Assembly (NCBI GenBank): GCA_947090635.1
Contig: CAMUOM010000001.1
Span: 42,277 to 106,276, forward strand
Direction: 5' to 3'
Source of the DNA: an uncultured Candidatus Saccharibacteria bacterium
Lineage (GTDB): Bacteria; Patescibacteriota; Saccharimonadia; Saccharimonadales; Saccharimonadaceae
Length of the DNA stretch: 64,000 nucleotides
A program made the translations under genes and the position numbers. The notes beneath the pieces are model-generated. The model had not been told where the DNA came from and did not search any database. It saw only the letters and a list, made by a program, of their open reading frames with translations. Positions 1-58,360 of this stretch are shown here, in pieces. The first letter of the stretch is position 1. Each line of letters starts with the position of its first letter.

Positions 1-2121
1 GACCAACACGCCATAAGTTTCCTTGAGCTGTGGTTCCATCGACGGATGCGGATAAGTAATCGGCTCCTCGCCGTGCTTACGCTTAATAAAAGTATCAATA
101 AACTGCATCGGGCCCGGGCGGTACAATGCCACCATAGCAATAATGTCCTCAAATTGCGTTGGCTTTAGGTCCTTTAAGTAACGCTTCATGCCAGCTGATT
201 CAAGCTGAAACACTCCAGTGGTATCACCCCGCTGCAATAATTTATACGCCTCTTGGTCATCTAGTGGCAAATGGATTAAGTCTAGATTATCACCATACAC
301 CTTGCGAATGATACGGCGGCAATTGTCAATAATCGTCAAGTTGGATAGACCCAAAAAGTCCATTTTTAGCAGGCCCATTTCCTCTACTTCTGGGGCTGGG
401 AACTGTGTCGTGATAACACCCTTCTGAGCAATCTCAAGCGGGATAATATTGATTAATGGCTCCGGCGCAATCACCGTACCGCAAGCATGTACGCCATGAC
501 TACGAATCGTACCTTCTAGCTGAATCGAATAGTCATACACCCGCTTCGCCGTCGGATTAGTGTCATACTCATGCTTCAAATCTGGGTCGCTGGCAATTAA
601 ATCCTTTAAAGTGGCATGATGCGATGATTGTGGCCCGCTCGGCACCAACTTTGATAAACGGTCTGCCTCAGCGTAAGGCACCTCTAGCACCCGCGCCACA
701 TCGCGCACCGCGGCGCGCGACGCCATCGTACCAAATGTCACAATATTGCAAACATGGTCATGGCCATATTTGTCAGCACAATACTGAATCACAGCATCAC
801 GACAAGTATCTTGCATATCGACATCAATATCCGGCATGGAAATACGTTCTGGATTCAAGAAACGCTCAAACAGCAGGTCATACTTTAACGGGTCAAGGTC
901 AGTAATGTTAATCGCGTAAGAGACAATTGACCCAGCCGCTGAACCACGCCCTGGCCCAAACACATAGCCCTGACTCTTACCCCAGTTAATAAAGTCCTGC
1001 ACAATCAAGAAGTAGCCTTCATAACCCATCGAACCAATCACACCAAGCTCCATCTCAGCCCGCTCACGCACTTCGTCCGACAACATCGGCTTGATATCTT
1101 CGATGGCATATTTCTCGGCCTCTTCCGGCTTCATACCGTTATAACGCACCAGTAAACCATGATAAACCAACTTATGAAAATACGAGTGCTCCGTCTCACC
1201 CTCTGGCAAAGACGGGAACTTTGGAATCAAAATCTGGCCAAGTTTTATCTCCACATTACAACGGTCAGCAATTCGCTTGGTATTTAATATCGCTTCTGGG
1301 CAATCATCCTTCCAGTGGTCAATAATGTCACGCGGGTCAGTTAAGTGAAGCTCAAAGTCCTCTAGCGACATGCGATTTTTATCGCTCAAAAACGACCCTG
1401 TGCCCACACATAGTAATATTTCATGTGCTTTCTGATATTCATGCGATAAATAGTGGCCATCACATGTCACCACCAACGGAATGTCTAATTCCTTCGACAT
1501 CTTCATTAGACCATTGTTTATTGTCTCCTGCACCTTCCAATGCGTATGACTTCGCGGATGGCCGTGGTCTTGTAGTTCTAGATAGTAACGGTCGCCGAAC
1601 ACACTCTTATACCATTTTGCGATCTCAACAGCATGCTCATAATCACCCGTCTTAAGCGCCACACCAACTTCACCCGAAGCACAACCTGACAAGACAATCA
1701 GGCCGGCATTCAATTTCTCTAATAGCTCATGGTCAACACGCGGCTTATAGTACATCCCCTCCAGATTAGCCGTCGAAGAAAGGCGCATCAGATTCTTAAA
1801 ACCTTCGTCATTCATTGCTAGCACTGTTAGGTGAAAACGTTGCTTGTCTTTAGCAGGGTCGTGGTCTTGCATACGGCGCGCCGCCACATAAGTTTCGATA
1901 CCTAAAATCGGCTTGAGCCCAGCGGCGTTCGCCTTCTTGTAGTAGGTCAGTACACCAGACAACGTACCATGGTCGGTAATCGCTGCCGCCTCCATGCCAA
2001 ATTCCTTACACTTGCTAATCAAATCATCCAACTGCGTCATGCCGTCAAGCACGCTGTAGGTGGTATGATTGTGCAAGTGTACGAAATCACTGGGCTTAAA
2101 TTCGTACTTTCCCTCACTCAT
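1..2121 (-). CDS. dnaE: DNA polymerase III alpha subunit, N-terminal part (continues beyond window start)
   Basis: Reverse-strand translation from ATG at 2119-2121 gives MSEGKYEFKPSDFVHLHNHTTYSVLDG, the PHP-domain N-terminus typical of DnaE. The frame stays open to position 1. TGcTATAAT lies 7 nt upstream of the ATG. Confidence 0.9.
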   Translation of the reverse strand, partial: MSEGKYEFKPSDFVHLHNHTTYSVLDGMTQLDDLISKCKEFGMEAAAITDHGTLSGVLTYYKKANAAGLKPILGIETYVAARRMQDHDPAKDKQRFHLTVLAMNDEGFKNLMRLSSTANLEGMYYKPRVDHELLEKLNAGLIVLSGCASGEVGVALKTGDYEHAVEIAKWYKSVFGDRYYLELQDHGHPRSHTHWKVQETINNGLMKMSKELDIPLVVTCDGHYLSHEYQKAHEILLCVGTGSFLSDKNRMSLEDFELHLTDPRDIIDHWKDDCPEAILNTKRIADRCNVEIKLGQILIPKFPSLPEGETEHSYFHKLVYHGLLVRYNGMKPEEAEKYAIEDIKPMLSDEVRERAEMELGVIGSMGYEGYFLIVQDFINWGKSQGYVFGPGRGSAAGSIVSYAINITDLDPLKYDLLFERFLNPERISMPDIDVDMQDTCRDAVIQYCADKYGHDHVCNIVTFGTMASRAAVRDVARVLEVPYAEADRLSKLVPSGPQSSHHATLKDLIASDPDLKHEYDTNPTAKRVYDYSIQLEGTIRSHGVHACGTVIAPEPLINIIPLEIAQKGVITTQFPAPEVEEMGLLKMDFLGLSNLTIIDNCRRIIRKVYGDNLDLIHLPLDDQEAYKLLQRGDTTGVFQLESAGMKRYLKDLKPTQFEDIIAMVALYRPGPMQFIDTFIKRKHGEEPITYPHPSMEPQLKETYGVLV

Positions 2122-2195
2122 TATGCCCATTATAGCACATATGCTTACGACGACCTAATCACTAAAGCTACCCTTACATTTACCCGTTTACTTAT

Positions 2196-3343: not shown

Positions 3344-3617
3344 GATTATTCCTCCTTTTATTCAAATAATATCTAATATATTTAACTATCACCTTCATAA
3401 CCACTGCTGGCGACACCAACTGACTAACCGACGCAGTGATGGTCCTGACATTGCGCGAACTCTCGCAAAGATTATTACTAATGTCTTCAACATTGCTGAC
3501 CACGTGTTTAATCTTACGCGAGATGCGAATCAGAATGATTGCAAGGGCAATTCCTAGCGCCAAAAACACGGCTAGCGCAATCGCCAATATAACAACCAAT
3601 ATCTGAAATACGTCCAT
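3327..3617 (-). CDS. Small membrane protein (DUF948-like), adjacent to the YtxH-like gene
   Basis: N-terminal TM helix MDVFQILVVILAIALAVFLALGIALAIILI. The start was chosen at the ATG at 3615-3617 because TGcTATATT lies 7 nt upstream. The track ORF extends further upstream from a TTG. Confidence 0.5.
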   Translation of the reverse strand: MDVFQILVVILAIALAVFLALGIALAIILIRISRKIKHVVSNVEDISNNLCESSRNVRTITASVSQLVSPAVVMKVIVKYIRYYLNKRRNNHVESE

Positions 3618-3685
3618 TAAGCTAAATATAGCATAAACATAATAAATAGTCAAATAAAAGACCCAGCATAGCTGGGCCTTTGGGA

Positions 3686-7994: not shown

Positions 7995-8279
7995 CTATAA
8001 TACCTTTGGCACTTTAACTTGCCCTGCCTCTTGGTCGGGAGCCAATGCTAGCAAAGTCTCGCGTGGCAACTGTTCTTCTATCACATCGTCACGCATTACA
8101 TTTTGTAGCCCTGTAACTTGAAACGTTGGCTCAACACCCTCAGTATTAAGTTCATCGAGCATATTAATATATTTCACAATATTATCAAGCTGGGTTGTGA
8201 GAGCCTCAGCCTGTTCGTCCGATACATTGATCTGACTCAGCGTCGCGAGATGGCGCACATCATCTTTACTTACACTCAT
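7995..8279 (-). CDS. gatC: Asp/Glu-tRNA amidotransferase subunit C
   Basis: 94 aa, with DVRHLATLSQINVSDEQAEALTTQLDNIVKYINML typical of GatC. TGcTATAAT lies 8 nt upstream of the ATG. Confidence 0.85.
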   Translation of the reverse strand: MSVSKDDVRHLATLSQINVSDEQAEALTTQLDNIVKYINMLDELNTEGVEPTFQVTGLQNVMRDDVIEEQLPRETLLALAPDQEAGQVKVPKVL

Positions 8280-8295
8280 TACCTATCATTATAGC

Positions 8296-8323
8296 AAAAA
8301 TCCCCGCTTTTGCGGGGATTTTG
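8296..8323. terminator. Bidirectional intrinsic terminator
   Basis: aaaaatccccgc-tttt-gcggggattttt: a GC-rich 8-bp stem flanked by an A-run and a T-run. Confidence 0.7.
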
Positions 8324-12935: not shown

Positions 12936-12985
12936 TGCCACCCTCTAAAATGTTATTAATTATGCTTATGTATACTATTATAGCA

Positions 12986-13966: not shown

Positions 13967-14789
13967 TTAATTCCTCCAAAGCCTGTTGCGCCTGTTCCGC
14001 ATTTGGCACCTTACCATGCCAATGATAGTCATTTTCCATAAAGCTCACACCCTTCGCTGGCACTGTATTAGCAATAATTGTTACTGGCTGATTATTATCT
14101 TCCGGTAAATTCAGCACAGTGTTGCATATTTCAGCCACGTCATTACCATTTATTACTTTTACTAGCCAGCCAAAGCTACGCCATTTGTCAGCTAGAGGCT
14201 CTAGCGGCATGATATCCTCGGTCTTGCCAGATAATTGAATAGTATTACGGTCAACAAATACCACCAAATTATTTAGCTGAGACTTACCGGCAAACATAGC
14301 AGCCTCCCAAATATTGCCTTCATCCAATTCACCGTCACCCGTCACGCAATAGACTCGGCGCTTAGTTTGGTCAAGATATTTAATACTGTAAGCCATGCCC
14401 GCCGCCTGCGACACGCCTGAACCTAATGGTCCAGATGTAGTCTCAAGATACGGCAAAGCAGTTCGTTCCGGATGTCCCTGCAAGTGTGAACCAAATTTTC
14501 GCAAACTCATTAGCTCATCCGGCTTGATAACACCACCCTCTGCTAGAGCAGCATACAACACTGGACAAGTATGGCCAGCCGACAGCACTAATAAATCCCG
14601 CGTAGTATCGTGCGGATCGCTAAAATTATAATGCATCAGCTTAAAATACAAGCTAGCAAAAATATCCGCCAAATCAAGCGACCCAGCAGTGTGCCCCGAC
14701 CCTGCCGCAGTTAACATTTTAATAATATTACGCCGCATATTGCGGGCGTGTTCACGCAATATACCAGCTTCCGACTCAGTGATGTTCAT
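13959..14789 (-). CDS. Transketolase, N-terminal (TPP-binding) subunit of a split enzyme
   Basis: 276 aa with the TPP-binding GDGELDEGNIWEA motif. TAAAAT lies 6 nt upstream of the ATG. Confidence 0.85.
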   Translation of the reverse strand: MNITESEAGILREHARNMRRNIIKMLTAAGSGHTAGSLDLADIFASLYFKLMHYNFSDPHDTTRDLLVLSAGHTCPVLYAALAEGGVIKPDELMSLRKFGSHLQGHPERTALPYLETTSGPLGSGVSQAAGMAYSIKYLDQTKRRVYCVTGDGELDEGNIWEAAMFAGKSQLNNLVVFVDRNTIQLSGKTEDIMPLEPLADKWRSFGWLVKVINGNDVAEICNTVLNLPEDNNQPVTIIANTVPAKGVSFMENDYHWHGKVPNAEQAQQALEELNV

Positions 14790-14798
14790 GGTTATATT

Positions 14799-15455
14799 TT
14801 AACACGTTTCATCAACCAGCGCTGTCAGCTTTTGGTAAGCAACGCGAGCATTTGGCGCATGACTAATCGCCCCGCCAACATTAATCCACGAGATTCCCGC
14901 TTGCTGCAATTCAACCACGTTATCTTGGTTTGCGCCACCATCCCACTCAAGTTGAACTTGCGGGTTAATTTGTCGAACCAAGTCAACCTTTTTAAGCTGT
15001 ATTAAATCCGCCGTGCCACCTTGATATCCCAGATGACCACCAAAAATCAACACATGCTGCGCCAATTTAATCAATTCCACTGCCGACTCCGGCTGCGTTT
15101 CAGGCAATAATGCTACGCCAAATTCAATACCAAACTTAGCTAAATGTTGTGCCAAACTAGGTAATTTTACTGCTGCGCTAGCCTCAGCGTGAACAATTAC
15201 CAAATCGGGATGTAAAGAAACAATCTGATCCACCCAAGTAGCTGGATCGTGCATCATCAAATGCAATACAATTTTAGCATCAAATGGCTCAAACTGCCGC
15301 CAATAAATCTGATTTAAATTAACCGTCTCACTTGGCGCAAACTGACCGTCTGTAATATCAATGTGGATTGCCGGCGCAAACTGCACAAATTCCTGCATGC
15401 GCTGCTGATACACCGCAGGGTCGTCGGTAGTAATGGTGGGCACGATATAGGTCAT
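14799..15455 (-). CDS. rpe: Ribulose-phosphate 3-epimerase-like
   Basis: 218-aa TIM-barrel-like protein with HIDITDGQFAPSE resembling the Rpe metal-binding motif. Sits in a pentose-phosphate gene cluster. ATGA overlap with rpiB. Confidence 0.7.
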   Translation of the reverse strand: MTYIVPTITTDDPAVYQQRMQEFVQFAPAIHIDITDGQFAPSETVNLNQIYWRQFEPFDAKIVLHLMMHDPATWVDQIVSLHPDLVIVHAEASAAVKLPSLAQHLAKFGIEFGVALLPETQPESAVELIKLAQHVLIFGGHLGYQGGTADLIQLKKVDLVRQINPQVQLEWDGGANQDNVVELQQAGISWINVGGAISHAPNARVAYQKLTALVDETC

Positions 15456-15904: not shown

Positions 15905-15941
15905 TTACCCTCCTATTTACAATACTATTATAACACTTAAC

Positions 15942-19263: not shown

Positions 19264-19272
19264 TGCTATAAT
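19264..19272 (+). promoter_or_regulatory. Extended -10 element (TGcTATAAT) 6 nt upstream of the rel ATG; implies a leaderless mRNA
   Basis: gtgctataat-tgtcat-ATG. There is no SD. Confidence 0.6.
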
Positions 19273-19278
19273 TGTCAT

Positions 19279-20763
19279 ATGAAAGAAGCAACAGAATTTT
19301 TAAAGCTCGCACGGCAGAAGTTTGCGGACGATAAAGACTACCAAAAAATCGTCTTAGCGCTTGATTTTGCTACCGAGAAGCACGCTGGTCAAAAACGCCT
19401 CAGCGGCGAACCATACATCATCCACCCAATTGCTGTTGCGACAATTCTCTGTGAATGGAACATGGACCGCGACTCCGTTGTCGCCGGTCTACTACATGAT
19501 GTCGCTGAAGATACCGGCACAGATTTAGGCGAAATAGGCGCAAAATTTGGCGATGACGTAGCGTTATTGGTTGATGGCGTCACTAAAATCAGCAAGGCAC
19601 GCAGTGGACGCGATGATATTACTCACTATCTACCAAAAACTAAAGACAACCTAACTAAACTGTTAGTTGCTATTGGGGCCGACGTCCGTGTCATTATTAT
19701 TAAATTGGCTGACCGCCTACACAATCTACGCACGCTCCAATATCAAACCCGTGAAAAACAACTTAAAAAAGCACGTGAAAGCCTTGAGGTATTTGGCCCG
19801 CTCGCCGACCGACTCAATATGGGGCGAGTACGCGTTGAGATTGAAGACTTAAGCTTTAAATACCTCGCACCAAAACGCTATGAAAAATTACGCGCCTTAA
19901 TTGACCGAAGAATCAGCGAAAGCAAACAGACTATCGACCAAGTTCGTAATGAAGTAAGCAAAAAGTTGGCCGAAGAAAAAATCCCTTGTCATGTAGAAGG
20001 GCGTATTAAGTCAGTTTATTCACTTCATAAAAAGTTGACCAAACACTCTGATATTAACGACATCTACGACCTCATGGCACTACGTGTTATCACCGACGAC
20101 GTCTCATCTTGCTATCTCGTACTCGGCTTACTTCACCAGATGTATACTCCAATGCCTGGGCGCATCAAAGACTATATTGCGCGGCCAAAAACTAACGGCT
20201 ATCAGTCGCTACACACTACAGTGACTACACCAGAAGGTCAAGTCGTAGAGTTCCAGATCCGCACTAAACAAATGCATGAATACGCCGAACGTGGTCTTGC
20301 TGCGTCATTCCATTACAATGAGCAAAAGCTAACCGATACCTACAAGCGCGGCGGACTGGCGCCTCTGCCAGCTAACCTAAACTGGATTCACGAGCTCCAA
20401 GTAGCTGCCGCTAAGTTGCGTGCCGGTAAGCAAGTCAACTTTGACGCCTTTAAGGTCAACCTATTCTCCGACCGCATTTTCGTCTATTCACCACGTGGCG
20501 ACATCTTCGACTTGCCATCTGGCGCCTTGCCACTCGACTTTGCCTACCAAGTTCACTCCGACGTAGCCGCCAAGGCTGCTGGCTTTATGGTTAATGGGCG
20601 ACTGGTTAAGTTCGATACACCACTTAAGTCAGGCGATGTCGTAGAAGTAATTACACGCAAAAATGTCATTCCGCACCTTGATTGGCTAAATAAAATCGCC
20701 ACCGGTCGTGCACGACGCAAGTTGCGCAATCAGCTCAGTAAAAATAGCCAGATTAATCAGTAA
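19279..20763 (+). CDS. rel: Bifunctional (p)ppGpp synthetase/hydrolase, RelA/SpoT homolog (HD + synthetase + TGS domains; no ACT domain)
   Basis: HD motif HDVAEDT. Synthetase motif YQSLHTTV. The C-terminal TGS-like segment ends at 494 aa. Confidence 0.9.
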   Translation: MKEATEFLKLARQKFADDKDYQKIVLALDFATEKHAGQKRLSGEPYIIHPIAVATILCEWNMDRDSVVAGLLHDVAEDTGTDLGEIGAKFGDDVALLVDGVTKISKARSGRDDITHYLPKTKDNLTKLLVAIGADVRVIIIKLADRLHNLRTLQYQTREKQLKKARESLEVFGPLADRLNMGRVRVEIEDLSFKYLAPKRYEKLRALIDRRISESKQTIDQVRNEVSKKLAEEKIPCHVEGRIKSVYSLHKKLTKHSDINDIYDLMALRVITDDVSSCYLVLGLLHQMYTPMPGRIKDYIARPKTNGYQSLHTTVTTPEGQVVEFQIRTKQMHEYAERGLAASFHYNEQKLTDTYKRGGLAPLPANLNWIHELQVAAAKLRAGKQVNFDAFKVNLFSDRIFVYSPRGDIFDLPSGALPLDFAYQVHSDVAAKAAGFMVNGRLVKFDTPLKSGDVVEVITRKNVIPHLDWLNKIATGRARRKLRNQLSKNSQINQ

Positions 20764-21365: not shown

Positions 21366-22097
21366 CTATTTTACCATACCTGACTCAGTACGGCCAAATT
21401 CGTCACGTGATTTAATTGATTTAACTTCGTCCTCAGTATCATGCTTAAATTTCTGAATATCATCATAAATTTTTGCTGCTTCACGCGCCGCTTCCTCAGA
21501 CTGAGATTTAGCGGTATTAGCCTTCTCCATTACAGTACGAACAATGTTTTGCGCATCATCAAACTTCGGTACCCGGCCACCAGCAGGCGCTTGGTCAATA
21601 AATTCATTGGCTGACTCAGGAATTGCAATATCATCAGTGTGATTCTTAACCGTCTCATCAATTGATTTTAATAGAGCCTGCACTGCCACTAGGGCTCGTG
21701 CTACGGTAGCATCATATTCGCTAGTATATGTCTTAATGAAGTCGAGCTTAACTGGGTCGGTTACGTTAAAGGTAGTATCCACTGGTGTCTGAATAACACT
21801 CGGCACAGCTGGTTCTACTGTTGGCTCTGGCTCTGGAGTGGGAGCTGGTTCATCTTGAATCTCACTAAAGTTACCAACCTTAGATTTATCGCTGGTATTA
21901 ATTGTCTCATTAGTAACCAGCTCTTCTCGCTTGCCGTCAACACTAATTGTGTCATTACCTAGACCATATCCAGCCAACGGGTCAATATTAAAATCAGTCG
22001 TAGTCGAATTTAACACTGGTTGACTAGTAGTCGCATTATTAGTAGCTTGCGCTACCGTACTAGCACTTCCGCTAGTAAATACTGATGGTATATCCAC
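21366..22097 (-). CDS. Hypothetical protein with a Thr/Pro-rich linker (PAPTPEPEPTVEPAVP)
   Basis: 243-aa ORF starting at a GTG, with GGGAGGG just upstream. Low-complexity N-terminal half. Confidence 0.45.
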   Translation of the reverse strand: MDIPSVFTSGSASTVAQATNNATTSQPVLNSTTTDFNIDPLAGYGLGNDTISVDGKREELVTNETINTSDKSKVGNFSEIQDEPAPTPEPEPTVEPAVPSVIQTPVDTTFNVTDPVKLDFIKTYTSEYDATVARALVAVQALLKSIDETVKNHTDDIAIPESANEFIDQAPAGGRVPKFDDAQNIVRTVMEKANTAKSQSEEAAREAAKIYDDIQKFKHDTEDEVKSIKSRDEFGRTESGMVK

Positions 22098-22177
22098 ATG
22101 CCCTCCCTAAGTTATCTTGTAAATATAATAGCACAAGCATATTATGCTATGCAAGTTATTTTTGGTATAATATAAGT

Positions 22178-23179
22178 ATGTTGCACGCAACACCAAAACT
22201 ATTGTTGCCAAAAGACTATATTGAGGATGTGACAAATTGCGCCCAAAAAGCTCAGGCTCGCATTTACCTAACTAGTCTAACTCTTTTTGAAGATGGCGCC
22301 ACCCAACCATTAATTGATGCCCTAATCGCCGCCGCAAAACGCGGAGTTGATGTACATGTCATGGCTGATTTTATGACTTTTATGTACGCCGAACAACACA
22401 CACGCAATATTTGTAAATTCCTTACCGGAGCCACTAGCCGTAAATCCGATCAAATTCGCAAACAACTAATCGAAGCGGGCGCAAAATTCTCTTGGCTTGG
22501 TTGCTATAATGTGCCACTTTGTATTGGCCGCACCCACTCAAAATGGTGCGTCATCGACGACACTGTATTCACGTTCGGCGGTGTCAATGCTGAAGGTGTA
22601 GCCGTAACCAAGCAAGCTGATTATATGTTCAAGCTAATTGATGCGCGCCTAGCGACAAAACTAGTTGCCGAACAACTAGACATCGAAGCCATCAATCAGA
22701 ATCCCAAACACCGCATCAATAAATCATTCAAATTGCCCTATGGAACCGTATTAATCGATAGCGGCAAAATGAACCGTTCACTAATTTACCGGCGCACACT
22801 TCAACTAGCTCAAAAGGCCAACCACGTCACTCTAGTGTCTCAATACTGCCCAAGCGGTAAACTTGGTAAAGAAATTGCTCGCAAATCAGCTGAGGTTTAT
22901 TTTAACCGTAAATCCCTTGCTGACAGTAAACTTAATAAAATACTTATTGGTTCATCGAAACTTGTTGCCAGTATGCACAACCTCTACACGCGCGACCGTT
23001 ACATTCATGCCAAATTTGCCATTTTTACCATGCCAGATGGTAACAAGGTAGCTATTACTGGTTCACACAACTTTACTACTGCCGGCTCATTCTTTGGCAC
23101 TAGAGAAATCGCACTCGAAACTACTGATAATAGAATTATCAATCAACTCGAACACTTTCTTGAGACTGAAATTAAATAA
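22178..23179 (+). CDS. Phospholipase D-family protein with two HKD motifs (soluble, 333 aa)
   Basis: HSKWCVIDD and HAKFAIFT....GSHNFT motifs. Start set at the ATG with TGgTATAAT 6 nt upstream. The track ORF extends 93 nt further upstream into the divergent gene. Confidence 0.7.
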   Translation: MLHATPKLLLPKDYIEDVTNCAQKAQARIYLTSLTLFEDGATQPLIDALIAAAKRGVDVHVMADFMTFMYAEQHTRNICKFLTGATSRKSDQIRKQLIEAGAKFSWLGCYNVPLCIGRTHSKWCVIDDTVFTFGGVNAEGVAVTKQADYMFKLIDARLATKLVAEQLDIEAINQNPKHRINKSFKLPYGTVLIDSGKMNRSLIYRRTLQLAQKANHVTLVSQYCPSGKLGKEIARKSAEVYFNRKSLADSKLNKILIGSSKLVASMHNLYTRDRYIHAKFAIFTMPDGNKVAITGSHNFTTAGSFFGTREIALETTDNRIINQLEHFLETEIK

Positions 23180-26389: not shown

Positions 26390-27412
26390 TTAATTAAACT
26401 TCCTTAAGAATGCTAATTTACCCGATTCAAAGTGACGCAAATCTTCAATACCATATTTCAACATCACTAATCGCTCTAGGCCACCACCCCAAGCAAAGCC
26501 ACGATACTTAGTCGGATCGATACCAGCCTCTTTTAACACATTCGGATGTAGCATACCACAACCCAACATCTCCAGCCATTCGCCACCCTTACCGCCGCCG
26601 CCTAAAGCTGCCGGCTTTTCAATAGCAAATTCTAAGCTCGGCTCTGTAAACGGGAAGTATCCCGGCTGCGTCTTAATACGTAACCGCTGGCCATAATAAG
26701 CTTCAAAGAAGTTAGCTAGCAGCCCCAGCATTTGACCAAGACTAGCATCACGCGACACATATACACCTTCAAACTGATTAAACGTATGGTCATGTGTCAC
26801 ATCAGCATCCTCATTGCGAAACACGCGACCGTAATGAATCTCGGCAATCGCTTCACCAGCTTCCAATTTAGCTAAGCCATTTTTAAGCGTACGATTCTCC
26901 ATTGCCGTAGTATGAGCCGGTGGAATATAGCCCTCCTCGGTGCGGAAAGTATCATAGCCATCACGCGCAGGATGATTCGGCGGAAAGTTAAGACTTGTAA
27001 ACATATGGTAGTCATCATCAATTTGCCGCGCTTCGTTGCATTCAAAACCCATCCGCATAAAGATATCAACTACCGACTTTAGCTCATCAGTCAACGGATG
27101 TAACGTACCCTGCTCAACCGGTAAAGCCTGTGGATGCGGCTTAATTTTACCCATCGCACTAGAGTCAAATGGCGCTGTCACATCGAGTGGTTCCACACTA
27201 GCATTTAATTTAGCCGCCTCATAATCTGCCGCAAGCTTGGTCAATTCTTGCTTTAGCTGATTAATTTTACGGCCAAATTCCGCTCGCTCCGCCTGCGGCA
27301 AGGTTGCAATTTGCCGATATAAGTCCTTCAGTTCCGGCGCTTTCAGTACTTCGCTTGGATTCTCCTGCTGTGCGCGCGCCAGCAATAACTTTCTCGCTTC
27401 CTCTAAGTTCAT
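26390..27412 (-). CDS. pheS: Phenylalanine--tRNA ligase alpha subunit
   Basis: Class II motifs including FTEPSLEF and GFAWGGGLERLVML. TAAAAT lies 6 nt upstream of the ATG. Confidence 0.95.
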   Translation of the reverse strand: MNLEEARKLLLARAQQENPSEVLKAPELKDLYRQIATLPQAERAEFGRKINQLKQELTKLAADYEAAKLNASVEPLDVTAPFDSSAMGKIKPHPQALPVEQGTLHPLTDELKSVVDIFMRMGFECNEARQIDDDYHMFTSLNFPPNHPARDGYDTFRTEEGYIPPAHTTAMENRTLKNGLAKLEAGEAIAEIHYGRVFRNEDADVTHDHTFNQFEGVYVSRDASLGQMLGLLANFFEAYYGQRLRIKTQPGYFPFTEPSLEFAIEKPAALGGGGKGGEWLEMLGCGMLHPNVLKEAGIDPTKYRGFAWGGGLERLVMLKYGIEDLRHFESGKLAFLRKFN

Positions 27413-27430
27413 AGTACTATTTTACCACCG

Positions 27431-29614: not shown

Positions 29615-30679
29615 TTACTGATTACTTGGACGGTCAACCGTAAGTGGTTCAACCGGGTCATCCGCTTTATCTGCAATCTTGATAATATCCTTATCAACCT
29701 TAGCAAATTCTTTATAAGCGTTATTGTAATGGTTAACCGTGGTACCAAGGCTCACACCCAACTTTGACATATATTCATTGTAACGTTCAATGTGCATACC
29801 AAGCTGCGCCACACGCTTCTGAATTTCCTTCGCCTGCTCTTCAATCTGCAAACTACGTAAACCTTGAATTACGGTTTCAAGATATGCCATAAAGCTCGTT
29901 GGGCTAACGATAATTACATGACGGTCACGGAAGGCGTACTCAATTAAGTCGCGCGACGACGCACCATCGCCCACACGGTCTTTTAAGAGGTCGTAATACA
30001 TGCTTTCGCTCGGAATGAACATGAAGGCAAAATCCATTGTGCCTTCATCTGGCCGAATATACTTCGCTGTCTCATCAATTCGCCCCTTGATATCTTGTTT
30101 AACTCGCCGAAGTAGTTGCTCGCGCTGGTCTTTATCGGTCGCCTCAATATAACGATTATAATTTTCGAGCGAGAATTTTGAATCAACCGGCAAGATACGC
30201 CGCTTGTCCAAGAATATCACTGCGTCGACAATCTCGCCATTCTTAAATTTATACTGCGCCTGCCACTGATTTGGTGGTAATACATTCTCTAGCAGTGAAT
30301 TGAGATAGAATTCACCAAACACACCGCGCTGCTTTGGATTTTGCAATACATTTTGCAGCGTCTTTAACTCATCTGCCACATCCACCACTCGCTTATTAGT
30401 CTCATCCAACTTCGTTAAACGGCGGCTCACATCGTTCACGATCGCCACACTTTGACGCAGCTGTTCCTGCATTGAATCTTGTGTACGATTTAACTTGTCG
30501 TCGAACGTCTTTGATAAATTCGTCGATAAACTCGACACTTCGCTGCGTAAATTTAAAATATCAGCTTGCAGATAGCGTTCAGCATCACTTGGCTGCTTAC
30601 GCTGCAATTTAATTAAACACATTACCAATAAACCAGTTACGACTACTAATAACGCGGTAATAATATACTCTATGTTCAT
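29615..30679 (-). CDS. rmuC: DNA recombination protein RmuC
   Basis: N-terminal TM helix, a long coiled coil and the conserved RmuC C-terminal region. 354 aa. Confidence 0.8.
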   Translation of the reverse strand: MNIEYIITALLVVVTGLLVMCLIKLQRKQPSDAERYLQADILNLRSEVSSLSTNLSKTFDDKLNRTQDSMQEQLRQSVAIVNDVSRRLTKLDETNKRVVDVADELKTLQNVLQNPKQRGVFGEFYLNSLLENVLPPNQWQAQYKFKNGEIVDAVIFLDKRRILPVDSKFSLENYNRYIEATDKDQREQLLRRVKQDIKGRIDETAKYIRPDEGTMDFAFMFIPSESMYYDLLKDRVGDGASSRDLIEYAFRDRHVIIVSPTSFMAYLETVIQGLRSLQIEEQAKEIQKRVAQLGMHIERYNEYMSKLGVSLGTTVNHYNNAYKEFAKVDKDIIKIADKADDPVEPLTVDRPSNQ

Positions 30680-30703
30680 ACTATTAGTTTAGCACAAGCT
30701 AAA

Positions 30704-32307: not shown

Positions 32308-32813
32308 CAGCGCACACCTCGCTTTAGCTCACGCGCCGTATCGCGCTGCTTGATAGCTTGGCGCTTATCATATTGTTTCTTGCCTTTACCAAGCATGATG
32401 ACTAATTTAATATACCGCGCATGCGTCAATAATTTAGTTGGCACTACAGTCAAGCCTTTACTGCGCGCCTCAACAACCCGCGCAATTTCCTTACGCTGAG
32501 CGAGTACCTTAATAGCATCAGTACTTACCGTGGTAGCTGATTGACCGCTACCGCGTGGCGCATTATTTTGCAACGTAAAAGAAGCGTTGATTAAATACAA
32601 TTCATCACCGCGCGGCCCGCGCTTTGGCACCACATAAGCCCCCTTCAAACTAACTCGATTTAATCGCGCCGCTTTTACTTCAAGCCCAGTCAGCGACAAG
32701 CCAACCGTCAAACTATCCGACAAACTATAATCGTAGCTAGCGCGTCGGTTAATTATTACTCCGGTAGACGCTTTATTTTGCTTATGTCCACGCCGCGTCA
32801 CTGATTTTCCCAT
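32307..32813 (-). CDS. smpB: SsrA-binding protein
   Basis: 168 aa with the SmpB core (NRRASYDY....LTGLEVKAAR) and a basic C-terminal tail. TCCTATAAT lies 7 nt upstream of the ATG. Confidence 0.85.
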   Translation of the reverse strand: MGKSVTRRGHKQNKASTGVIINRRASYDYSLSDSLTVGLSLTGLEVKAARLNRVSLKGAYVVPKRGPRGDELYLINASFTLQNNAPRGSGQSATTVSTDAIKVLAQRKEIARVVEARSKGLTVVPTKLLTHARYIKLVIMLGKGKKQYDKRQAIKQRDTARELKRGVR

Positions 32814-32903
32814 ATCTTATATTATAGGATACTTGCGCATAACGTGCCAGTGTTTACCAAATAAACTCACTACAACCTAGGTTTTTGAACTAAATTTATA
32901 TAA

Positions 32904-33396: not shown

Positions 33397-33456
33397 GAAT
33401 ATTTTTATTTTTCCTACTTAGCACAATAAATAAACATTTATGATATACTTTTAATA

Positions 33457-34473
33457 ATGCAGCGCTTAACTGTTAATTTAGTTTCTGAAAGCGAATTTAG
33501 TGTGCAAGGGCATGGCGTCCACACCGCATATCTTGAGATGCGCCATTTGTTAGAAAAACAATCCGGAATCAATCTACTGGTCAATGCCAAACCACTAGCT
33601 GACACTGACATTACTCATATCCATACTATCGGCCTATTTTCATTGCTACGTTTATTGTCGCGGCGCGGTGGCAAAAAAATTGTCAGCGCCCACATGGTAC
33701 CAGATAGTCTGGTCGGTTCAATCGTTGGCGCTCGGTGGTGGCTACCACTATTCAGCCGTTATCTATGCTGGTTCTACAACCACGCCGATACGCTTATCGC
33801 GGTTTCACCTTACACCAAGCAGGTTCTATTAAAGCTAGGCATTAAAGCGCCGATTGTCGTAATTGATAATTCTATCGACACCTCCGCCTATCAAACATCA
33901 GACGAGCAGAAAGCTAAATTAAGGCGCGAGCTACACTTGTCGCCTAGTAAATTTATTGTCATTGGTAGCGGTCAAATTCAGCCGCGCAAACGATTCAGTA
34001 CGTTTCTTCAGGTTGCCGCGGCACTACCAAAATTTCAATTCATCTGGGTAGGCGGAATTCCATTTAAAGCTGCCGGCTCAGATTATCTAGGGCTTAATCA
34101 TCTTATCAAGCACCACCCCAAAAATGTCTTGGTAACTGGAGTTGTACCACAAGCTGAAGCACGTAAATACACCCGCGCCGCCGACGTAATGTTTATGCCA
34201 TCAATTCAAGAAACCTTCGGGCTATCCATTGTCGAAGGTGCCGCCAGTGGTTTGCCGGTAGTAGTACGCGATATTGCCGACTACAATGCCACTTTCGGGC
34301 AAGACGTCTTACGTGGCGATGAACATAATTTTACTGAATTGATTCAATCGCTCGCCGATGACCCAGATTTTTATCACAAATACCGACAAAAATCACACCA
34401 TCTAGCACAAAAATATGACTCTAACCGCACTGCGAGTAAACTATTAGCAGTTTATCGTAAGCTAGCGCATTAA
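33457..34473 (+). CDS. Glycosyltransferase family 4 (GT-B fold)
   Basis: C-terminal EX7E region ETFGLSIVEGAASGLPVV. 338 aa. An extended-10-like TGaTATACT lies 7 nt upstream of the ATG. Confidence 0.75.
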   Translation: MQRLTVNLVSESEFSVQGHGVHTAYLEMRHLLEKQSGINLLVNAKPLADTDITHIHTIGLFSLLRLLSRRGGKKIVSAHMVPDSLVGSIVGARWWLPLFSRYLCWFYNHADTLIAVSPYTKQVLLKLGIKAPIVVIDNSIDTSAYQTSDEQKAKLRRELHLSPSKFIVIGSGQIQPRKRFSTFLQVAAALPKFQFIWVGGIPFKAAGSDYLGLNHLIKHHPKNVLVTGVVPQAEARKYTRAADVMFMPSIQETFGLSIVEGAASGLPVVVRDIADYNATFGQDVLRGDEHNFTELIQSLADDPDFYHKYRQKSHHLAQKYDSNRTASKLLAVYRKLAH

Positions 34474-34495
34474 TGTGGTATAATAATCACACAAT

Positions 34496-35773
34496 ATGCG
34501 CATTGGTTTATTTACCGATACCTATCGACCCGCTCAAAACGGCGTTGTTTTAGTAGTAGATGTGACGCGTCGCGAATTAGAGAAGATGGGGCACGAAGTC
34601 TGGGTATTTGCACCGAGCGCTAACCTCTTAAATGAAGTATCAGAGGTGGATGCCGAAGATGACCACCTAATTCACTTTCCAACCATCCGCGGAGCAGGCT
34701 TTAAAGAAGGGCAATTGCCACTATTTTATTCACCACACTTGCTTGCTAAAGTACAAGACCTTAGAATTGACGTTCTCCACTTTTTTACCGCCGGCCAAAT
34801 GGCCATGTTTTGCTGTTACGCCGCCCGCAAGACTGGCGCAGTTCTAATTGGTCAGCACTGCACTGATACTTACGAGTATTCCGACAGCTACCGCTTATTA
34901 AAGGTTGGCTATGCTGCAATGGCTACACTAATGCCGCTTGCCGTCAATATGTCACGCGAACAGCGTCTTGACTTCGTTCGCAATATCGCCGACCACAAAA
35001 GCGAAGATTCGTGGGGACGGCGACTAGTAGGTAATATGCTAGCTCTCTGGTACCAAGCTTGCGATGAAGTGATTGCGGTTAGCGAAAAGTCAGCCAACCA
35101 GCTCCGCGAGATTGCCGCCACCAATAACTGCAGCATTAATCTCACTACTATTCCAACCGGCGTCAATCAACCACGAGTTCCAGATGAAGCTGAAATCGAT
35201 GCTTTCTGCGCCACACACCATATCGACCGGCACGCTAATAACCTAATCTATTTTGGCCGACTAGGGCAAGAGAAAAATCTTGACCTGCTGATTCCAGTAA
35301 TTGAGCGCGTCCGCCAGTCAGTGCCAGATGCCAACTTAATCTTTGCTGGCGACTGGGAATATCGCACTCATCTCGAAGAGCTGGCGGCTGCAAGCCCAGC
35401 ACACGACCACATCTACTTTGTCGGGCGTTACCCGCATCGCGATGTCGGTATTTTAACCGCCATCAGCAAGATATACCTCTTCCCGTCACTCACTGACACT
35501 CAAGGATTGGCAGTGACAGAGGCGGCATACGGTGGATTACCAATTGTTTTGTGCGACCCATTAGCACCAGCCTGCTTTATTGACCACAAAAACGGCTATA
35601 CTGCGCAAAATGACGCCGCTGATTTTGCCAATAAAGTTATTGATTTGTTGCAGCACCCCGTGCGCTATCGTAACTTTAGTAATTGTTCCAAGCAGCTTGC
35701 CGCCGAGCTAACCGAAACAAAACAAACCGAGAAAGTAGTCGAAGTTTACCGCCAAGCCCTCAAACGCCAATAG
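34496..35773 (+). CDS. Glycosyltransferase family 4 (GT-B fold)
   Basis: N-terminal MRIGLFTDTYRPAQNGV and C-terminal TDTQGLAVTEAAYGGLPIV, both typical GT4 blocks. 425 aa. Confidence 0.75.
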   Translation: MRIGLFTDTYRPAQNGVVLVVDVTRRELEKMGHEVWVFAPSANLLNEVSEVDAEDDHLIHFPTIRGAGFKEGQLPLFYSPHLLAKVQDLRIDVLHFFTAGQMAMFCCYAARKTGAVLIGQHCTDTYEYSDSYRLLKVGYAAMATLMPLAVNMSREQRLDFVRNIADHKSEDSWGRRLVGNMLALWYQACDEVIAVSEKSANQLREIAATNNCSINLTTIPTGVNQPRVPDEAEIDAFCATHHIDRHANNLIYFGRLGQEKNLDLLIPVIERVRQSVPDANLIFAGDWEYRTHLEELAAASPAHDHIYFVGRYPHRDVGILTAISKIYLFPSLTDTQGLAVTEAAYGGLPIVLCDPLAPACFIDHKNGYTAQNDAADFANKVIDLLQHPVRYRNFSNCSKQLAAELTETKQTEKVVEVYRQALKRQ

Positions 35774-36082: not shown

Positions 36083-36149
36083 AGTTCTCCTTTGGTCTAC
36101 GTATATAATTACGTTCTAAACCATATTATAGCACTTAAGTTTATAATTG

Positions 36150-36344: not shown

Positions 36345-37287
36345 TACTAATGCTTTTAATATACTGTCGAATCTTAAATACCGCTTGTGTGCCCTCGGCT
36401 GAAGCTGACACGATTTGCTTAACCGACCCAGCACGCACATCGCCAGCTGCAAATACACCAGCAATATTGGTCTGCATCTGAGCATCCGTCTTCACGCAGC
36501 CAACTTCATCAAGCTCAACTCCCGAATCCGCCAAGAATCCAGTATTCGGCGTAGAACCAGCAAAAATAAAGATGCCGTCCGCTGTCACGGTTTGCTGCAT
36601 GGCAGGATCATCGGTCTTATAGGTACTCAGCCCAACCACATTGCGATGCTCGTCCAGTTTAATTTCATCTGGCGTCCAGCCTTCCAACAACGTAATTTTA
36701 CCGTCTTTAATGTATTGTGCTAGCTCATCTTTTAGAATTGCACTCGCCTTAATATAGCTCCGCACTACCATAGTTAAATGTTTAGCAAACTTGGTTAAAT
36801 AAAATGCCTCTTGAACCGCTGAATTAGCGCCACCAATCACAATCAACTCACGCCCCTTATACAACGCGCCATCGCATGTCGCACAATAATGCACACCACG
36901 CCCAGTTAGTTTGTCTTCTAGTGGCAAGCCCAAACGCCGATATTGCGCACCCGTAGCCACCAAACACGCCTTTGCTTCGTAAATGTCACCCTCGCGCGTT
37001 GAAACTTGCACTAACTCACCAACCTTTTTTACTGCCGTTGCCTCAGCAAACTTAATTACTGCGCCAAAGCGCTCCGCTTGGTCTTGATAATCCTGCGCCA
37101 AGCTCATACCCTCAATTCCCTGGCTAAATCCTGGGTAATTATCTACTCGGTCAATAGTTGCCATTACGCCACCGACTAGTGCACGCTCTAACACTACGGT
37201 CTTAATACCCTCGCGTGTCGCATAAATCGCTGCCGTTAACGCTGCTGGGCCGCCGCCTACAATCACTAAGTCGTAATCTTGATTCAT
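36334..37287 (-). CDS. trxB: Thioredoxin-disulfide reductase
   Basis: FAD motif DLVIVGGGPA, redox-active CATCDG and NADPH motif GGANSAVQEA. TGcTATAAT lies 6 nt upstream of the ATG. Confidence 0.9.
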   Translation of the reverse strand: MNQDYDLVIVGGGPAALTAAIYATREGIKTVVLERALVGGVMATIDRVDNYPGFSQGIEGMSLAQDYQDQAERFGAVIKFAEATAVKKVGELVQVSTREGDIYEAKACLVATGAQYRRLGLPLEDKLTGRGVHYCATCDGALYKGRELIVIGGANSAVQEAFYLTKFAKHLTMVVRSYIKASAILKDELAQYIKDGKITLLEGWTPDEIKLDEHRNVVGLSTYKTDDPAMQQTVTADGIFIFAGSTPNTGFLADSGVELDEVGCVKTDAQMQTNIAGVFAAGDVRAGSVKQIVSASAEGTQAVFKIRQYIKSISNVA

Positions 37288-37304
37288 ATTACGATTATAG
37301 CAAA

Positions 37305-39038
37305 TTACACCTGAGTGAGTAACAGCACCTGATATGGAGCAAGCGTAATTTTGTCACCACTGTTAATCTGCTTTAATGGCTCACCCACAAAATCAGCCGA
37401 ATAGCCCGACCACGCCGAATTAAATGCCACTTGCCACGTGCTGCCCGGCAAATTAATTTGGTAGTTATGCCACTTTAAGCCGCTAAAGTTCGCCAACACG
37501 ATTACTGGTTGTTGCCCAGTATCACCGCGTTGATACATTAGCACCCGACAATTCTCGTCGGCCAACAAAATATGAAGTGCTGGTGATTGCAATCCGCCAG
37601 TTTGATGATATTGATTACGCCTCAGGGCAATTAAATCACGGTGCGCCGACACAATACCCCCAAATTGGTCAATATTAGCCCAATCTAGTGAATTCCAATC
37701 ATTAAAATCACCGCCCTGCAAAAATTCCGAACCCGCCAGCAACATTGGTACACCAGGCGCAGTCAATGCAATAGCAGAAGTTAAAATAGCAATCCGACGC
37801 GCATTGATACTATGTACATCCTTCACTGCAACTGCCACCATTCGCGAACCACCGTTAGCCGCCGTATCATGACTATCCGCAAACACAATGCGCTGTTGCC
37901 AACAATTATTAAAGCTTTGTCCTAGCACATTACAAAGATTAGCTAAGCCTGGCGCTTCACTCCCGATATGAAGAGCACCGCGCAACACATGCGGCAAACC
38001 TAAATCCCATTGTGCATCAAATCCCGCGCCGCCCGCTAGTTGTGACGCCGTAATAGCACTATTGCCAGCACAATCCTCGGCAATCACTAAAGAACCTGGC
38101 TTAATTTTATGCGACACACGTGTAATTTCAGACAGCAAGCTCCAAGCCTCTGGAATATCATGCGCTGGGTCGTTGTTGTTACCGGCAGTATTACGCATAT
38201 AAATCGTACTATCCACCCTAAAACCATCAACGTGGTAATTGCTCAGCCACATCGACACATTATCAAGAATAAACTCCCGCACTTCTGGACGGCCAAAGTC
38301 CGGCCGACTGCCCCACGGCGTATCGCCGCGCTGGTCGTTATAAAAATAAATACCCCCACGGCCATTTTCGCTCCAGCCATCAAACTGCCATAAATCATTG
38401 TCGGCCGAAAAATGGTTATAAACCACATCAAGAATCACTTCAAGCCCACGCTTATGCGCCTCCTTGACAAAGGTCTTCATGCCAAATGCACCACCATACT
38501 GACTTTCTACAGAATAAATTGCACTCGGCGCATAGCCCCAACCAAAACTCTCCGCCATCGATGTCACCGGCATTAACTCCAGTGTAGTTACACCTAAATC
38601 TTGCAAATAATCAAGACGCTCAATTGCCGATGCAAAAGTACCAGTAGTCGACGGGTCGGGGCGATTAAACGTCCCAATGTGAATCTCGTAAATTACCCGT
38701 TGTTCCGCCGGCTGCGGCACTACTACCTCATACCCCTGCCAGTCAAAACTACTATCGTACACCACAGATTTACCATCGTTACTATCAGTTAAGACGCGCC
38801 CACGTGGGTCATTGCGATACTTCACTTGGCCATCATAGCCGGTAATCTGATATTTATAAGCATGGCCTGGTTCAACACCATCCACCCGCACCGACCAATA
38901 GCCAGTAGTTCGGTCGACCTCCATAGCAATCGGCTGCCACTTCGAAAAATCACCCACAACCGACACAGCACGAGCAAACGGCGCCCACAATCGAAACACC
39001 GTATAATCTTCATGTTGTTCTAGACCCAACCGACTCAT
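37305..39038 (-). CDS. GH13-family alpha-glucan enzyme with N-terminal CBM48 (branching/debranching or TreZ-like)
   Basis: CBM48-like N-terminus FRLWAPFARAVSVVGDFSKW. GH13 blocks EVILDVVYNHF and VDGFRVDSTIYM. Start set at MSRLG with TAAAAT 7 nt upstream. The track ORF begins 24 codons earlier. Confidence 0.75.
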   Translation of the reverse strand: MSRLGLEQHEDYTVFRLWAPFARAVSVVGDFSKWQPIAMEVDRTTGYWSVRVDGVEPGHAYKYQITGYDGQVKYRNDPRGRVLTDSNDGKSVVYDSSFDWQGYEVVVPQPAEQRVIYEIHIGTFNRPDPSTTGTFASAIERLDYLQDLGVTTLELMPVTSMAESFGWGYAPSAIYSVESQYGGAFGMKTFVKEAHKRGLEVILDVVYNHFSADNDLWQFDGWSENGRGGIYFYNDQRGDTPWGSRPDFGRPEVREFILDNVSMWLSNYHVDGFRVDSTIYMRNTAGNNNDPAHDIPEAWSLLSEITRVSHKIKPGSLVIAEDCAGNSAITASQLAGGAGFDAQWDLGLPHVLRGALHIGSEAPGLANLCNVLGQSFNNCWQQRIVFADSHDTAANGGSRMVAVAVKDVHSINARRIAILTSAIALTAPGVPMLLAGSEFLQGGDFNDWNSLDWANIDQFGGIVSAHRDLIALRRNQYHQTGGLQSPALHILLADENCRVLMYQRGDTGQQPVIVLANFSGLKWHNYQINLPGSTWQVAFNSAWSGYSADFVGEPLKQINSGDKITLAPYQVLLLTQV

Positions 39039-39068
39039 TACTACAATTTTAACACAAGCGTGATAAAC

Positions 39069-39077
39069 TGGTATAAT
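39069..39077 (+). promoter_or_regulatory. Extended -10 (TGgTATAAT) 7 nt upstream of the SGNH hydrolase ATG; leaderless
   Basis: ctggtataat-tttatta-ATG. Confidence 0.55.
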
Positions 39078-39084
39078 TTTATTA

Positions 39085-41541: not shown

Positions 41542-41608
41542 ATAACATATTTTAGCATACCTATGGCATTATTATGGCTTAAGCGCTAAAATAGATATAA
41601 GGAATTTT

Positions 41609-46083: not shown

Positions 46084-46199
46084 TATTAAAATTATAGCAT
46101 ACAACCAAAAAGACGCCCCTCTATCAAGGACGTCTTTCAGGCACAAATAAATCTCGCATTTATTTTATTTAGTTCGCGCACAACTTCGAACTGATATAA

Positions 46200-48876: not shown

Positions 48877-48891
48877 AATACTATTATAGCA

Positions 48892-58354: not shown

Positions 58355-58360
58355 GTAGAC

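Follow-up and report, generated by a model that had tools for sequence, protein, structure and literature searches.

The genomic signature of leaderless transcription has been defined in bacteria both by gene prediction and by the mapping of transcription start sites (TSS). As described in the main text of the GeneMarkS-2 paper, the starts of operon-leading genes in group C genomes have a Pribnow-type box at 6-8 nt and those of the others a Shine-Dalgarno (SD) sequence at that distance, and the predicted leaderless share is 25-50% of operons (PMC6028130). The group consists mainly of Actinobacteria (90% of them) and Deinococcus-Thermus (97%), and Saccharibacteria or the candidate phyla radiation (CPR) are not mentioned in that main text (PMC6028130). 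The subject here is a 64-kb stretch of one Saccharibacteria (TM7) genome, called the window throughout, in which 26 of ~65 genes (~40%) have a box of the extended -10 type close to the start codon, at a gap of 6-8 nt in 25 cases and of 11 nt in one. These are referred to as leaderless-type genes, and from their sequences it is very probable that many transcription units of this genome are leaderless, by way of extended -10 boxes placed at the start codon. The window matches group C in having a peak at gaps of 6-7 nt at starts and SD sequences at internal or leadered genes, as judged within these 64 kb.

Mapping of TSS in Mycobacterium tuberculosis found 26% to be leaderless, with a TANNNT element and no -35 element; half of the mapped aminoacyl-tRNA synthetase genes were leaderless and no ribosomal protein genes were (PMC3898074). 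Similarly, pheS, glyQS and leuS are of the leaderless type in the window and rpsP and rpmA are SD-led. Also shared are TANNNT, the lack of a -35 consensus, a purine start with a pyrimidine at -1 and closely juxtaposed divergent promoters. However, TGn is found in 7% of the M. tuberculosis TANNNT promoters as against 23 of 26 in the window, GTG is as frequent as ATG there as against one GTG and 25 ATG in the window, and the median leader there is 55 nt as against a predicted ~10-45 nt. The M. tuberculosis starts are experimental, whereas those of the window are predictions. In Deinococcus deserti 60% of mapped TSS were leaderless, with the -10 element directly upstream of the start and no -35 element (PMC4007540), a share comparable to that in the window, where 26 of the 38 start-proximal predicted promoters are of the leaderless type. 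The D. deserti genome is larger and GC-rich, 17% of its leaderless genes start with GTG, and an overlap of promoters and stop codons like that of the window is not reported in the available part of that paper (PMC4007540). It follows from the TSS mapping in these two organisms that such a sequence signature does correspond to leaderless mRNAs.

In low-GC Gram-positive bacteria the sequence T-R-T-G-n upstream of TATAAT renders the -35 box dispensable, and such TRTGn promoters normally drive leadered, SD-dependent mRNAs. In the window, by contrast, the extended -10 element is fused to the start codon. A full-text search of one paper library found no paper reporting leaderless mRNAs in Saccharibacteria or CPR; a study of CPR ribosomes does not mention leaderless organisation (PMC9297842) and a preprint on the TM7x transcriptome does not mention promoters or untranslated regions. 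The NCBI pipeline uses GeneMarkS-2 (as cited in a TM7 genome note), so a classification may already exist implicitly in annotation runs.

Boxes upstream of start codons

The leaderless-type genes are given below with the coordinates from box to start codon, the strand, the gene, the box, the gap and the start codon.

19264..19281, plus strand: rel (RelA/SpoT, 494 aa); TGCTATAAT, 6 nt, ATG; divergent junction of 97 bp
22163..22180, plus strand: PLD-like gene (333 aa); TGGTATAAT, 6 nt, ATG
33441..33459, plus strand: glycosyltransferase (338 aa; the 33457 gene); TGATATACT, 7 nt, ATG
34476..34498, plus strand: glycosyltransferase (425 aa; the 34496 gene); TGGTATAAT, 11 nt, ATG; borderline, predicted leader of 4-5 nt
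39069..39087, plus strand: SGNH/GDSL hydrolase; TGGTATAAT, 7 nt, ATG; back-to-back with GH13
39036..39054, minus strand: GH13 glucan enzyme (577 aa); TGTTAAAAT, 7 nt, ATG; back-to-back with the SGNH hydrolase
54038..54057, plus strand: methyltransferase (402 aa); TGATATAAT, 8 nt, ATG; divergent pair, 65 bp
53987..54004, minus strand: flippase-like gene (379 aa; the 53989 gene); CGATATAAT, 6 nt, ATG; without TG
58346..58363, plus strand: LysM protein; TGTTAATAT, 6 nt, ATG; perfect TTGACA -35 element at 17 bp
2119..2137, minus strand: dnaE; TGCTATAAT, 7 nt, ATG
3615..3633, minus strand: 96-aa protein (the 3617 gene); TGCTATATT, 7 nt, ATG; TTGACT -35 element
8277..8296, minus strand: gatC; TGCTATAAT, 8 nt, ATG; terminator hairpin adjoins promoter
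14787..14804, minus strand: N-terminal half of transketolase (tktN); TGTTAAAAT, 6 nt, ATG
27410..27427, minus strand: pheS; TGGTAAAAT, 6 nt, ATG; 18 nt behind upstream stop codon
28285..28303, minus strand: 75-aa protein (the 28287 gene); TGATATAAT, 7 nt, ATG
30677..30694, minus strand: rmuC-like gene; TGCTAAACT, 6 nt, ATG
32811..32829, minus strand: smpB; TCCTATAAT, 7 nt, ATG; without TG
37285..37302, minus strand: trxB; TGCTATAAT, 6 nt, ATG
41539..41557, minus strand: ABC-F ATPase; TGCTAAAAT, 7 nt, ATG
46081..46099, minus strand: trmD; TGCTATAAT, 7 nt, GTG; the sole non-ATG case
48874..48891, minus strand: glyQS; TGCTATAAT, 6 nt, ATG; box directly behind upstream stop TAG
50627..50644, minus strand: histidine-kinase-like gene (the 50629 gene); TGCTATACT, 6 nt, ATG; terminator adjoins promoter
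51378..51395, minus strand: 228-aa protein; TGTTAAAAT, 6 nt, ATG
56129..56146, minus strand: response-regulator receiver (REC) gene; CGGTATACT, 6 nt, ATG; without TG
61534..61551, minus strand: leuS; TGCTAGAAT, 6 nt, ATG
62857..62874, minus strand: murF; TGGTATAAT, 6 nt, ATG

Twenty-one of these combine TGn and TAnnnT at a gap of 6-8 nt before ATG; the rest are the three boxes without TG (TGn being replaced by TCC, CGA and CGG in smpB, the flippase-like gene and the REC gene), the GTG start and the gap of 11 nt. The start codons are 25 ATG, one GTG and no TTG, and TTG is confined to the non-leaderless genes. Family searches with the 96-aa protein gave no match. A sequence-only reading of this DNA had put the boxes 5-8 nt before the ATG; the short spacing is real and its actual range is 6-8 nt (6 nt in 14 genes, 7 nt in nine and 8 nt in two). 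The site flagged in that reading, at rel, is as it was described, with TGCTATAAT at 19264-19272, tgtcat as the 6-nt spacer and ATG at 19279-19281. All five of its named plus-strand examples and all twelve on the minus strand were found, the start of the methyltransferase box being corrected to 54038 and that of the LysM box to 58346.

The total of ~65 genes, counted after inspection of alternative starts, is made up of 64 in the main tally and a candidate xseB. As a guard against circularity the spacing was also measured on a mechanical set of 49 starts, for which the longest open reading frames (ORFs) that do not overlap and reach 100 aa were taken and each was begun at its first ATG. A scan for TANNNT near starts, which the earlier reading had proposed, found it at a gap of exactly 6 nt in 13/49 of these as against 2.2% of the other 2,099 ATGs, with lesser peaks over background at 5, 7 and 8 nt but at no other distance. 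The motif TGNTANNNT stood at a gap of 6-8 nt in 15/49 as against 1.2% of other ATGs (binomial p=1.5e-17).

A composition artefact would require that AT-rich intergenic DNA, together with the TAA and TAG stops of upstream genes, gives rise to TANNNT by chance. Two boxes do contain the upstream stop, several lie directly behind one, and the window has 42-47% G+C. Yet there are 40 occurrences of TGNTANNNT with an ATG 6-8 nt behind it, as against 11.6 +/- 3.5 (maximum 21) in 300 dinucleotide shuffles, which excludes an AT-rich chance effect of the kind that the earlier reading had allowed for. There is a sharp peak at a gap of 6-7 nt and no broad rise, TG stands ahead of 15 of the 18 TANNNT boxes found at 6-8 nt in the mechanical set, and ten cases lie at divergent junctions, where there is no upstream stop codon. 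Escherichia coli K-12, given the same treatment, had the motif at 2/42 annotated starts and no gap peak. On the shuffles and the E. coli control the artefact was rejected, its probability being negligible, and the placement of boxes at a short gap before starts is confirmed far beyond chance. The motif TGNTANNNT is itself over-represented (271 as against 182 +/- 14 in dinucleotide-preserving shuffles), and exact TGNTATAAT sites number 18 in the window, of which ~two-thirds then have a start codon within 6-8 nt.

Promoter or ribosome-binding site

The consensus over the 26 sites is T-R-T-G-n-T-A-t-A-A-T, with base counts, when aligned on the hexamer, of 19 for T-17, 24 for T-15, 25 for G-14, 18 for t-10, 25 for A-9 and 21 for A-8; T-15 and G-14 are both present in 23 boxes (88%). 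The -35 region of the same alignment holds <0.4 bit of information per position. The best -35 match averages 3.0/6 as against 2.5/6 at random positions (p=0.01), and a good -35 element was found in three promoters, one of them a perfect TTGACA at the weakest -10 element. A classical two-hexamer promoter scan gave weak enrichment (68 as against 48.8 +/- 7.6) and missed most of the boxes, which fits -35-independent promoters. By sequence the boxes are extended -10 promoters in which the -35 element is weak or dispensable. In 18/26 sites the start codon follows directly on a pyrimidine, which agrees with a Y(-1)R(+1) transcription start. The sole Rfam match in the window, at gathering thresholds and at E<=0.05, was a tRNA-Gln, so that no RNA gene accounts for any box. 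This tRNA-Gln gene (39778-39851, plus strand) has a perfect TTGACA-18-TATAAT promoter without TG upstream of it at 39732-39761 and a terminator hairpin at 39862-39885. With a canonical two-hexamer promoter at this gene, the polymerase appears still able to use a -35 element where one is present.

The absence of an SD sequence at boxed genes, claimed in the earlier reading, was borne out: GGAG, GAGG or AGGA occurs at -18..-4 in 0/26 of them as against 30/38 of the others (Fisher p=4e-11), the background of these 4-mers at the same positions being 6.6% of all ATGs. With a looser list of nine motifs, including GGGGG, AAGG and GGGA, 32/38 of the non-leaderless genes scored as SD-led. The genes that had been named as SD-led (gatA, gatB, gap, ppa, FKBP, pheT, MIP, rpmA, nusB and rpsP) all have GGAGG or AGGAG 3-10 nt upstream, and the window does mix two modes of initiation, boxed genes without SD standing beside SD-led ones. 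With a weight matrix built from the 26 sites, high-scoring boxes were also found ahead of 12 SD-led genes at 16-51 nt, with GGAGG between box and ATG and implied leaders of ~10-45 nt. These include fba, rpiB, gap, ppa, the gene of a 243-aa protein at 22097, FKBP, MIP, glutaredoxin and DUF308, of which four serve as contrasts.

15927..15935, minus strand: box of rpiB, TGTTATAAT, 22 nt upstream of ATG with GGAGG between; leader of ~15 nt
12977..12985, minus strand: box of SD-led fba, TGCTATAAT, 41 nt upstream
36125..36133, minus strand: box of the SD-led glutaredoxin gene, TGCTATAAT, 42 nt upstream
21368..21376, minus strand: box of SD-led ppa, TGGTAAAAT, 23 nt upstream

Since the motif also stands at such distances upstream of SD-led genes, it is the promoter of the organism and not a ribosome-binding site. 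The opposite view is that the A/T-rich motif is a non-SD translation signal on polycistronic mRNA, either a ribosome-binding site of the group B or Bacteroidetes type or an S1-binding enhancer. In its favour, 16 of the 26 leaderless-type genes lie behind a neighbour on the same strand, in eight cases at a distance (7-24 nt) too short for a terminator, and these could be translated from read-through transcripts. However, the conserved positions are those of sigma-70 contacts (T-12, A-11, T-7 and the TG at -15/-14), an AU-rich enhancer would have no need of a near-invariant G (25/26), and the copies 16-51 nt from SD-led genes lie at distances impossible for a ribosome-binding site. The boxes are over-represented at divergent junctions, whose genes need a promoter of their own, and were not seen at overlapping, abutting or coupled internal genes, where a GeneMarkS-2 group B signal should also occur. 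A translation signal is on these grounds very unlikely.

Genes at divergent junctions must carry their own promoter, and ten of the 16 in the window are leaderless-type, which again points to a promoter; five are SD-led and one is neither. Divergent pairs with 46-97 bp between them have back-to-back -10 boxes at leaderless distance. The 46 bp that separate GH13 from the SGNH hydrolase (39039-39084) are taken up by two 9-nt boxes with 14 nt between them and 7 nt on either side, and the 65-bp region between the flippase-like and methyltransferase genes has the same layout. Every leaderless-type gene is set apart from the upstream gene, by at least 7 nt. A gap of <=0 was found for 10/26 SD-led and 4/5 signal-less co-directional genes, as expected of operon-internal, coupled genes. 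The gene divergent from rel encodes an RCC1-like repeat protein of 709 aa (17052-19181, minus strand); a GGGGG run resembling an SD stands at its start, with a weak -10 box 48 nt upstream.

Assignment of start codons

For eleven leaderless-type genes the alignments to family profiles begin at the N-terminus (residues 1-11), as follows.

GlyRS: first aligned residue 1, profile position 1
TrxB: first aligned residue 1, profile position 1
REC: first aligned residue 1, profile position 1
TrmD: first aligned residue 3, profile position 2
ABC-F: first aligned residue 3, profile position 3
GatC: first aligned residue 3, profile position 1
33457 glycosyltransferase: first aligned residue 6, profile position 3
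Rel: first aligned residue 8, profile position 7 (NF008303)
DnaE: first aligned residue 11, profile position 3
SmpB: first aligned residue 11, profile position 5
TktN: first aligned residue 3, profile position 9

Several start codons had been repositioned in the earlier reading by use of the box. For PLD the new start agrees with all seven public cluster members, whose length of 333 aa places their start at the leaderless ATG; for GH13 the calls in most close relatives are of 577 aa, beginning MSRLGLEQ; and relatives of REC are called at 132 aa, their MKPKAK... aligning with MESKTR.... The public calls for this contig use upstream ATGs for GH13 (601 aa; 37305-39110), the flippase-like gene (385 aa; 52850-54007) and the small 28287 protein (87 aa; 28060-28323), all on the minus strand. 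Because the public ATG of the flippase-like gene lies 6 codons upstream of the leaderless ATG, its 379-aa start is less certain, and public calls of 87 or 77 aa make the start of the 75-aa protein uncertain. The differing public starts are likely to be mis-annotations by gene finders without a leaderless model.

If the boxes were real promoters and the start codons wrongly assigned, the true starts would lie downstream behind SD sequences and the leaders would be ordinary. The starts of the 3617, 28287 and 53989 genes have no independent support, and the three differing public calls also speak for some misassignment. On the other side, the eleven profile alignments pin their starts, the N-termini of LeuS, MurF and REC are conserved in orthologues, and most leaderless-type genes have no earlier start codon between the preceding in-frame stop and the ATG. 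Near in-frame starts further downstream, the only SD-like 4-mers are weak and 8-14 nt away (pheS, trxB and the flippase-like gene). General misassignment is highly improbable. The start codons appear to be correctly assigned, eleven by profile and those of leuS, murF, REC, PLD and GH13 by orthologues or relatives; ~8 others are not so supported.

Conservation in related genomes

LeuS of the window is 98% identical to that of Candidatus Saccharibacteria genomosp. TM7-H1 (CP026537.1, 723 kb), 70-72% to that of Nanoperiomorbus (G5) and 58-60% to that of Nanosyncoccus (G3), and 80/80 related loci in a LeuS-based collection were from Saccharibacteria or Patescibacteria. Other window genes are just 76-88% identical to TM7-H1, and the window thus belongs to a related yet distinct species. 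GC skew is negative throughout.

The N-terminus M-x-R-Y-x-P of LeuS is common to all lineages compared, and a box was found at a gap of 6-8 nt from leuS in 12 of 16 representative Saccharibacteria loci with 58-98% protein identity. The DNA upstream of leuS is unrelated between lineages, yet a TGnTAnnnT-type box is kept. In four G5 loci (L008, L020, L025 and L053, at about position 10001) leuS instead has GGAGGA...TGA-ATG and no ATG-proximal box; the SD lies inside the upstream gene with the stop adjoining the start, an arrangement that indicates translational coupling. These G5 loci are closely related to one another and were not counted as independent. leuS would in this respect be an evolutionary switch between leaderless and coupled initiation within one orthologue, and its change of form among lineages suggests that leaderless and SD-coupled modes interconvert readily.

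A murF box at a gap of 6 nt was found in three lineages (L001, L047 and the G5 loci), and the nusB SD is kept in relatives. Compared with the closest genome (L001) the box is kept, and the 6-8 nt spacer has another sequence and is in some genes one base longer or shorter; a constant box with a varying spacer is the footprint expected of a promoter. The box is kept in L001 at the LysM and histidine-kinase-like genes and, at a gap of 7 nt, at the methyltransferase and 228-aa genes, and REC orthologues in L001 and L004 have it at 6-7 nt. The peak at 6-7 nt recurs in other loci, nearly always with TG, at 26% of starts in G3-like loci, 18% in the 63% group and 30% in H1-like loci, and is weaker in the GC-richer G5 loci by the mechanical histogram.

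Gene junctions and read-through

Promoters and the ends of upstream genes are tightly packed. The rpe stop TAA forms the first three bases of the tktN -10 element, TGT[TAA]AAT (14796-14804, minus strand), and a stop TAA of a HAD protein gene lies inside the TATAAT of murF, TGGTA[TAA]T (62866-62874, minus strand). At both sites one triplet would serve as translation stop and as promoter bases. Four further boxes begin 0-3 nt from the upstream stop codon. The promoters of gatC, trmD, the 50629 gene and the 3617 gene each have a terminator hairpin a short way upstream, and at gatC and the 50629 gene the T-run of the terminator supplies T-17 to T-15 of the promoter. Three terminator/promoter junctions were delimited.

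8288-8330, minus strand: terminator/promoter junction of gatC
46091-46130, minus strand: terminator/promoter junction of trmD
50636-50668, minus strand: terminator/promoter junction of the 50629 gene

The eight genes at 7-24 nt co-directional gaps without terminators lend something to the idea of two expression modes, in which the boxes act as weak internal promoters and longer read-through transcripts, translated by re-initiation or 70S scanning behind the upstream stop codon, yield most of the protein; the coupling of G5 leuS to its upstream gene is also in its favour. It is inapplicable to the 10 genes at divergent junctions and to gatC, trmD, the 50629 gene and the 3617 gene, which are preceded by terminators, and the conservation of the box at leuS and murF argues for selection on the box. 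Dual expression has little probability as the explanation of the boxes, and for a subset of genes it is compatible with leaderless transcription from them.

Proposed mode of expression

Under leaderless transcription a housekeeping RNA polymerase of the sigma-70 type would recognise TRTGnTAtAAT with little or no help from a -35 element. The box-ATG gap of 6-8 nt equals the usual distance from -10 element to TSS, so transcription should begin on the start codon; the start would fall 7-9 nt downstream of the element, at the A of the ATG. The mRNA would begin with AUG and the ribosome would engage this 5'-terminal start codon without SD pairing. Operon-internal genes and a minority of first genes would use GGAGG-type SD sequences, the visible promoters giving leaders of ~10-45 nt. 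Where exactly transcription starts and how the ribosome binds are inferred from the sequence. The leaderless interpretation of the earlier reading has held in its sequence-level predictions (spacing, SD exclusivity, divergent junctions, ATG bias and conservation).

Several points weigh against this interpretation. Five of the 26 cases are weaker (the three without TG, the GTG and the 11-nt gap) and the evidence comes from 64 kb only. As gaps of 7-24 nt leave no room for a terminator, read-through transcripts must cover these genes, and transcripts with internal, SD-less ATGs must, by the sequence layout, also exist there. Where the gap is 7-8 nt, 1-2 nt may precede the AUG in the RNA. The only TSS set found for Saccharibacteria (188 sites in N. 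lyticus TM7x) is inferred from coverage and imprecise (PMC12641261).

The organisation appears to be the known bacterial leaderless one, in a strict TGn extended -10 and highly compacted form, in a CPR lineage. As leaderless organisation is well known from Actinobacteria and Deinococcus, this is an extension to another phylum and no new principle, and a specialist in bacterial translation initiation would not be surprised. For CPR biology it offers a testable picture of how expression starts in an ultrasmall epibiotic bacterium, with one promoter class of the sigma-70 type and two-thirds of the visible promoters predicted to give AUG-first mRNAs. For annotation it means that gene finders expecting an SD choose upstream starts, such as 601 instead of 577 aa for GH13 or 87 aa for the small protein. 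A minimal cassette for genetic work in cultivated Saccharibacteria could be TRTGnTATAAT, 6 nt and ATG. The uses would lie in CPR gene-start annotation, the design of genetic tools and the understanding of expression in reduced genomes. A wider proposal would add Saccharibacteria, and perhaps also other CPR/Patescibacteria, to the major bacterial lineages whose first genes are mainly expressed as leaderless mRNAs, made from -35-independent TRTGn extended -10 promoters that are fused to the start codon and often overlap the upstream stop or terminator. This would be a feature as yet undescribed, tied to extreme genome compaction and to reduced ribosomes, and many SD-based gene starts in CPR metagenome-assembled genomes would be wrong. 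The proposal is put forward tentatively, the balance being slightly against it.

Other features of the window

The gene names given in the earlier reading agree with Pfam and NCBIfam matches for dnaE, gatCAB, uvrB, rel, ppa, pheST, smpB and trxB, and likewise for a pentose-phosphate/glycolysis cluster, GH13, ABC-F, trmD, rpsP, glyQS, recO, xseA, rpmA, rnc, nusB, leuS and murF.

The HAD protein upstream of murF (365 aa, 62867-63964, minus strand) matches the second half of the HAD hydrolase domain only (profile 85-191, residues 13-135) and resembles the C-terminal part of a P-type ATPase, of which a complete one lies at 43114-45201. The gene may be truncated or split; it is close to the window edge.

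Two gaps of ~500 nt are free of ORFs of at least 60 aa (47010-47526 and 2535-3019) and have no Rfam match at E<=0.05. The first, between glyQS and rpsP, ends at a minus-strand terminator-like hairpin (47145-47126), and the fold of its minus strand is only a little more stable than that of shuffled sequence (z=-2.06). An RNA gene so far unrecognised, or a spacer, may lie here.

The candidate xseB is a 78-aa ORF (51429-51665, minus strand) that overlaps the end of xseA by 17 nt and was missed by the 100-aa filter; by position and sequence it looks like the exonuclease VII small subunit. Two paralogous small proteins of the DUF7675 family, both SD-led, are encoded on the minus strand at 2196-2534 and 32904-33206 (E=9e-26 and 8e-28).

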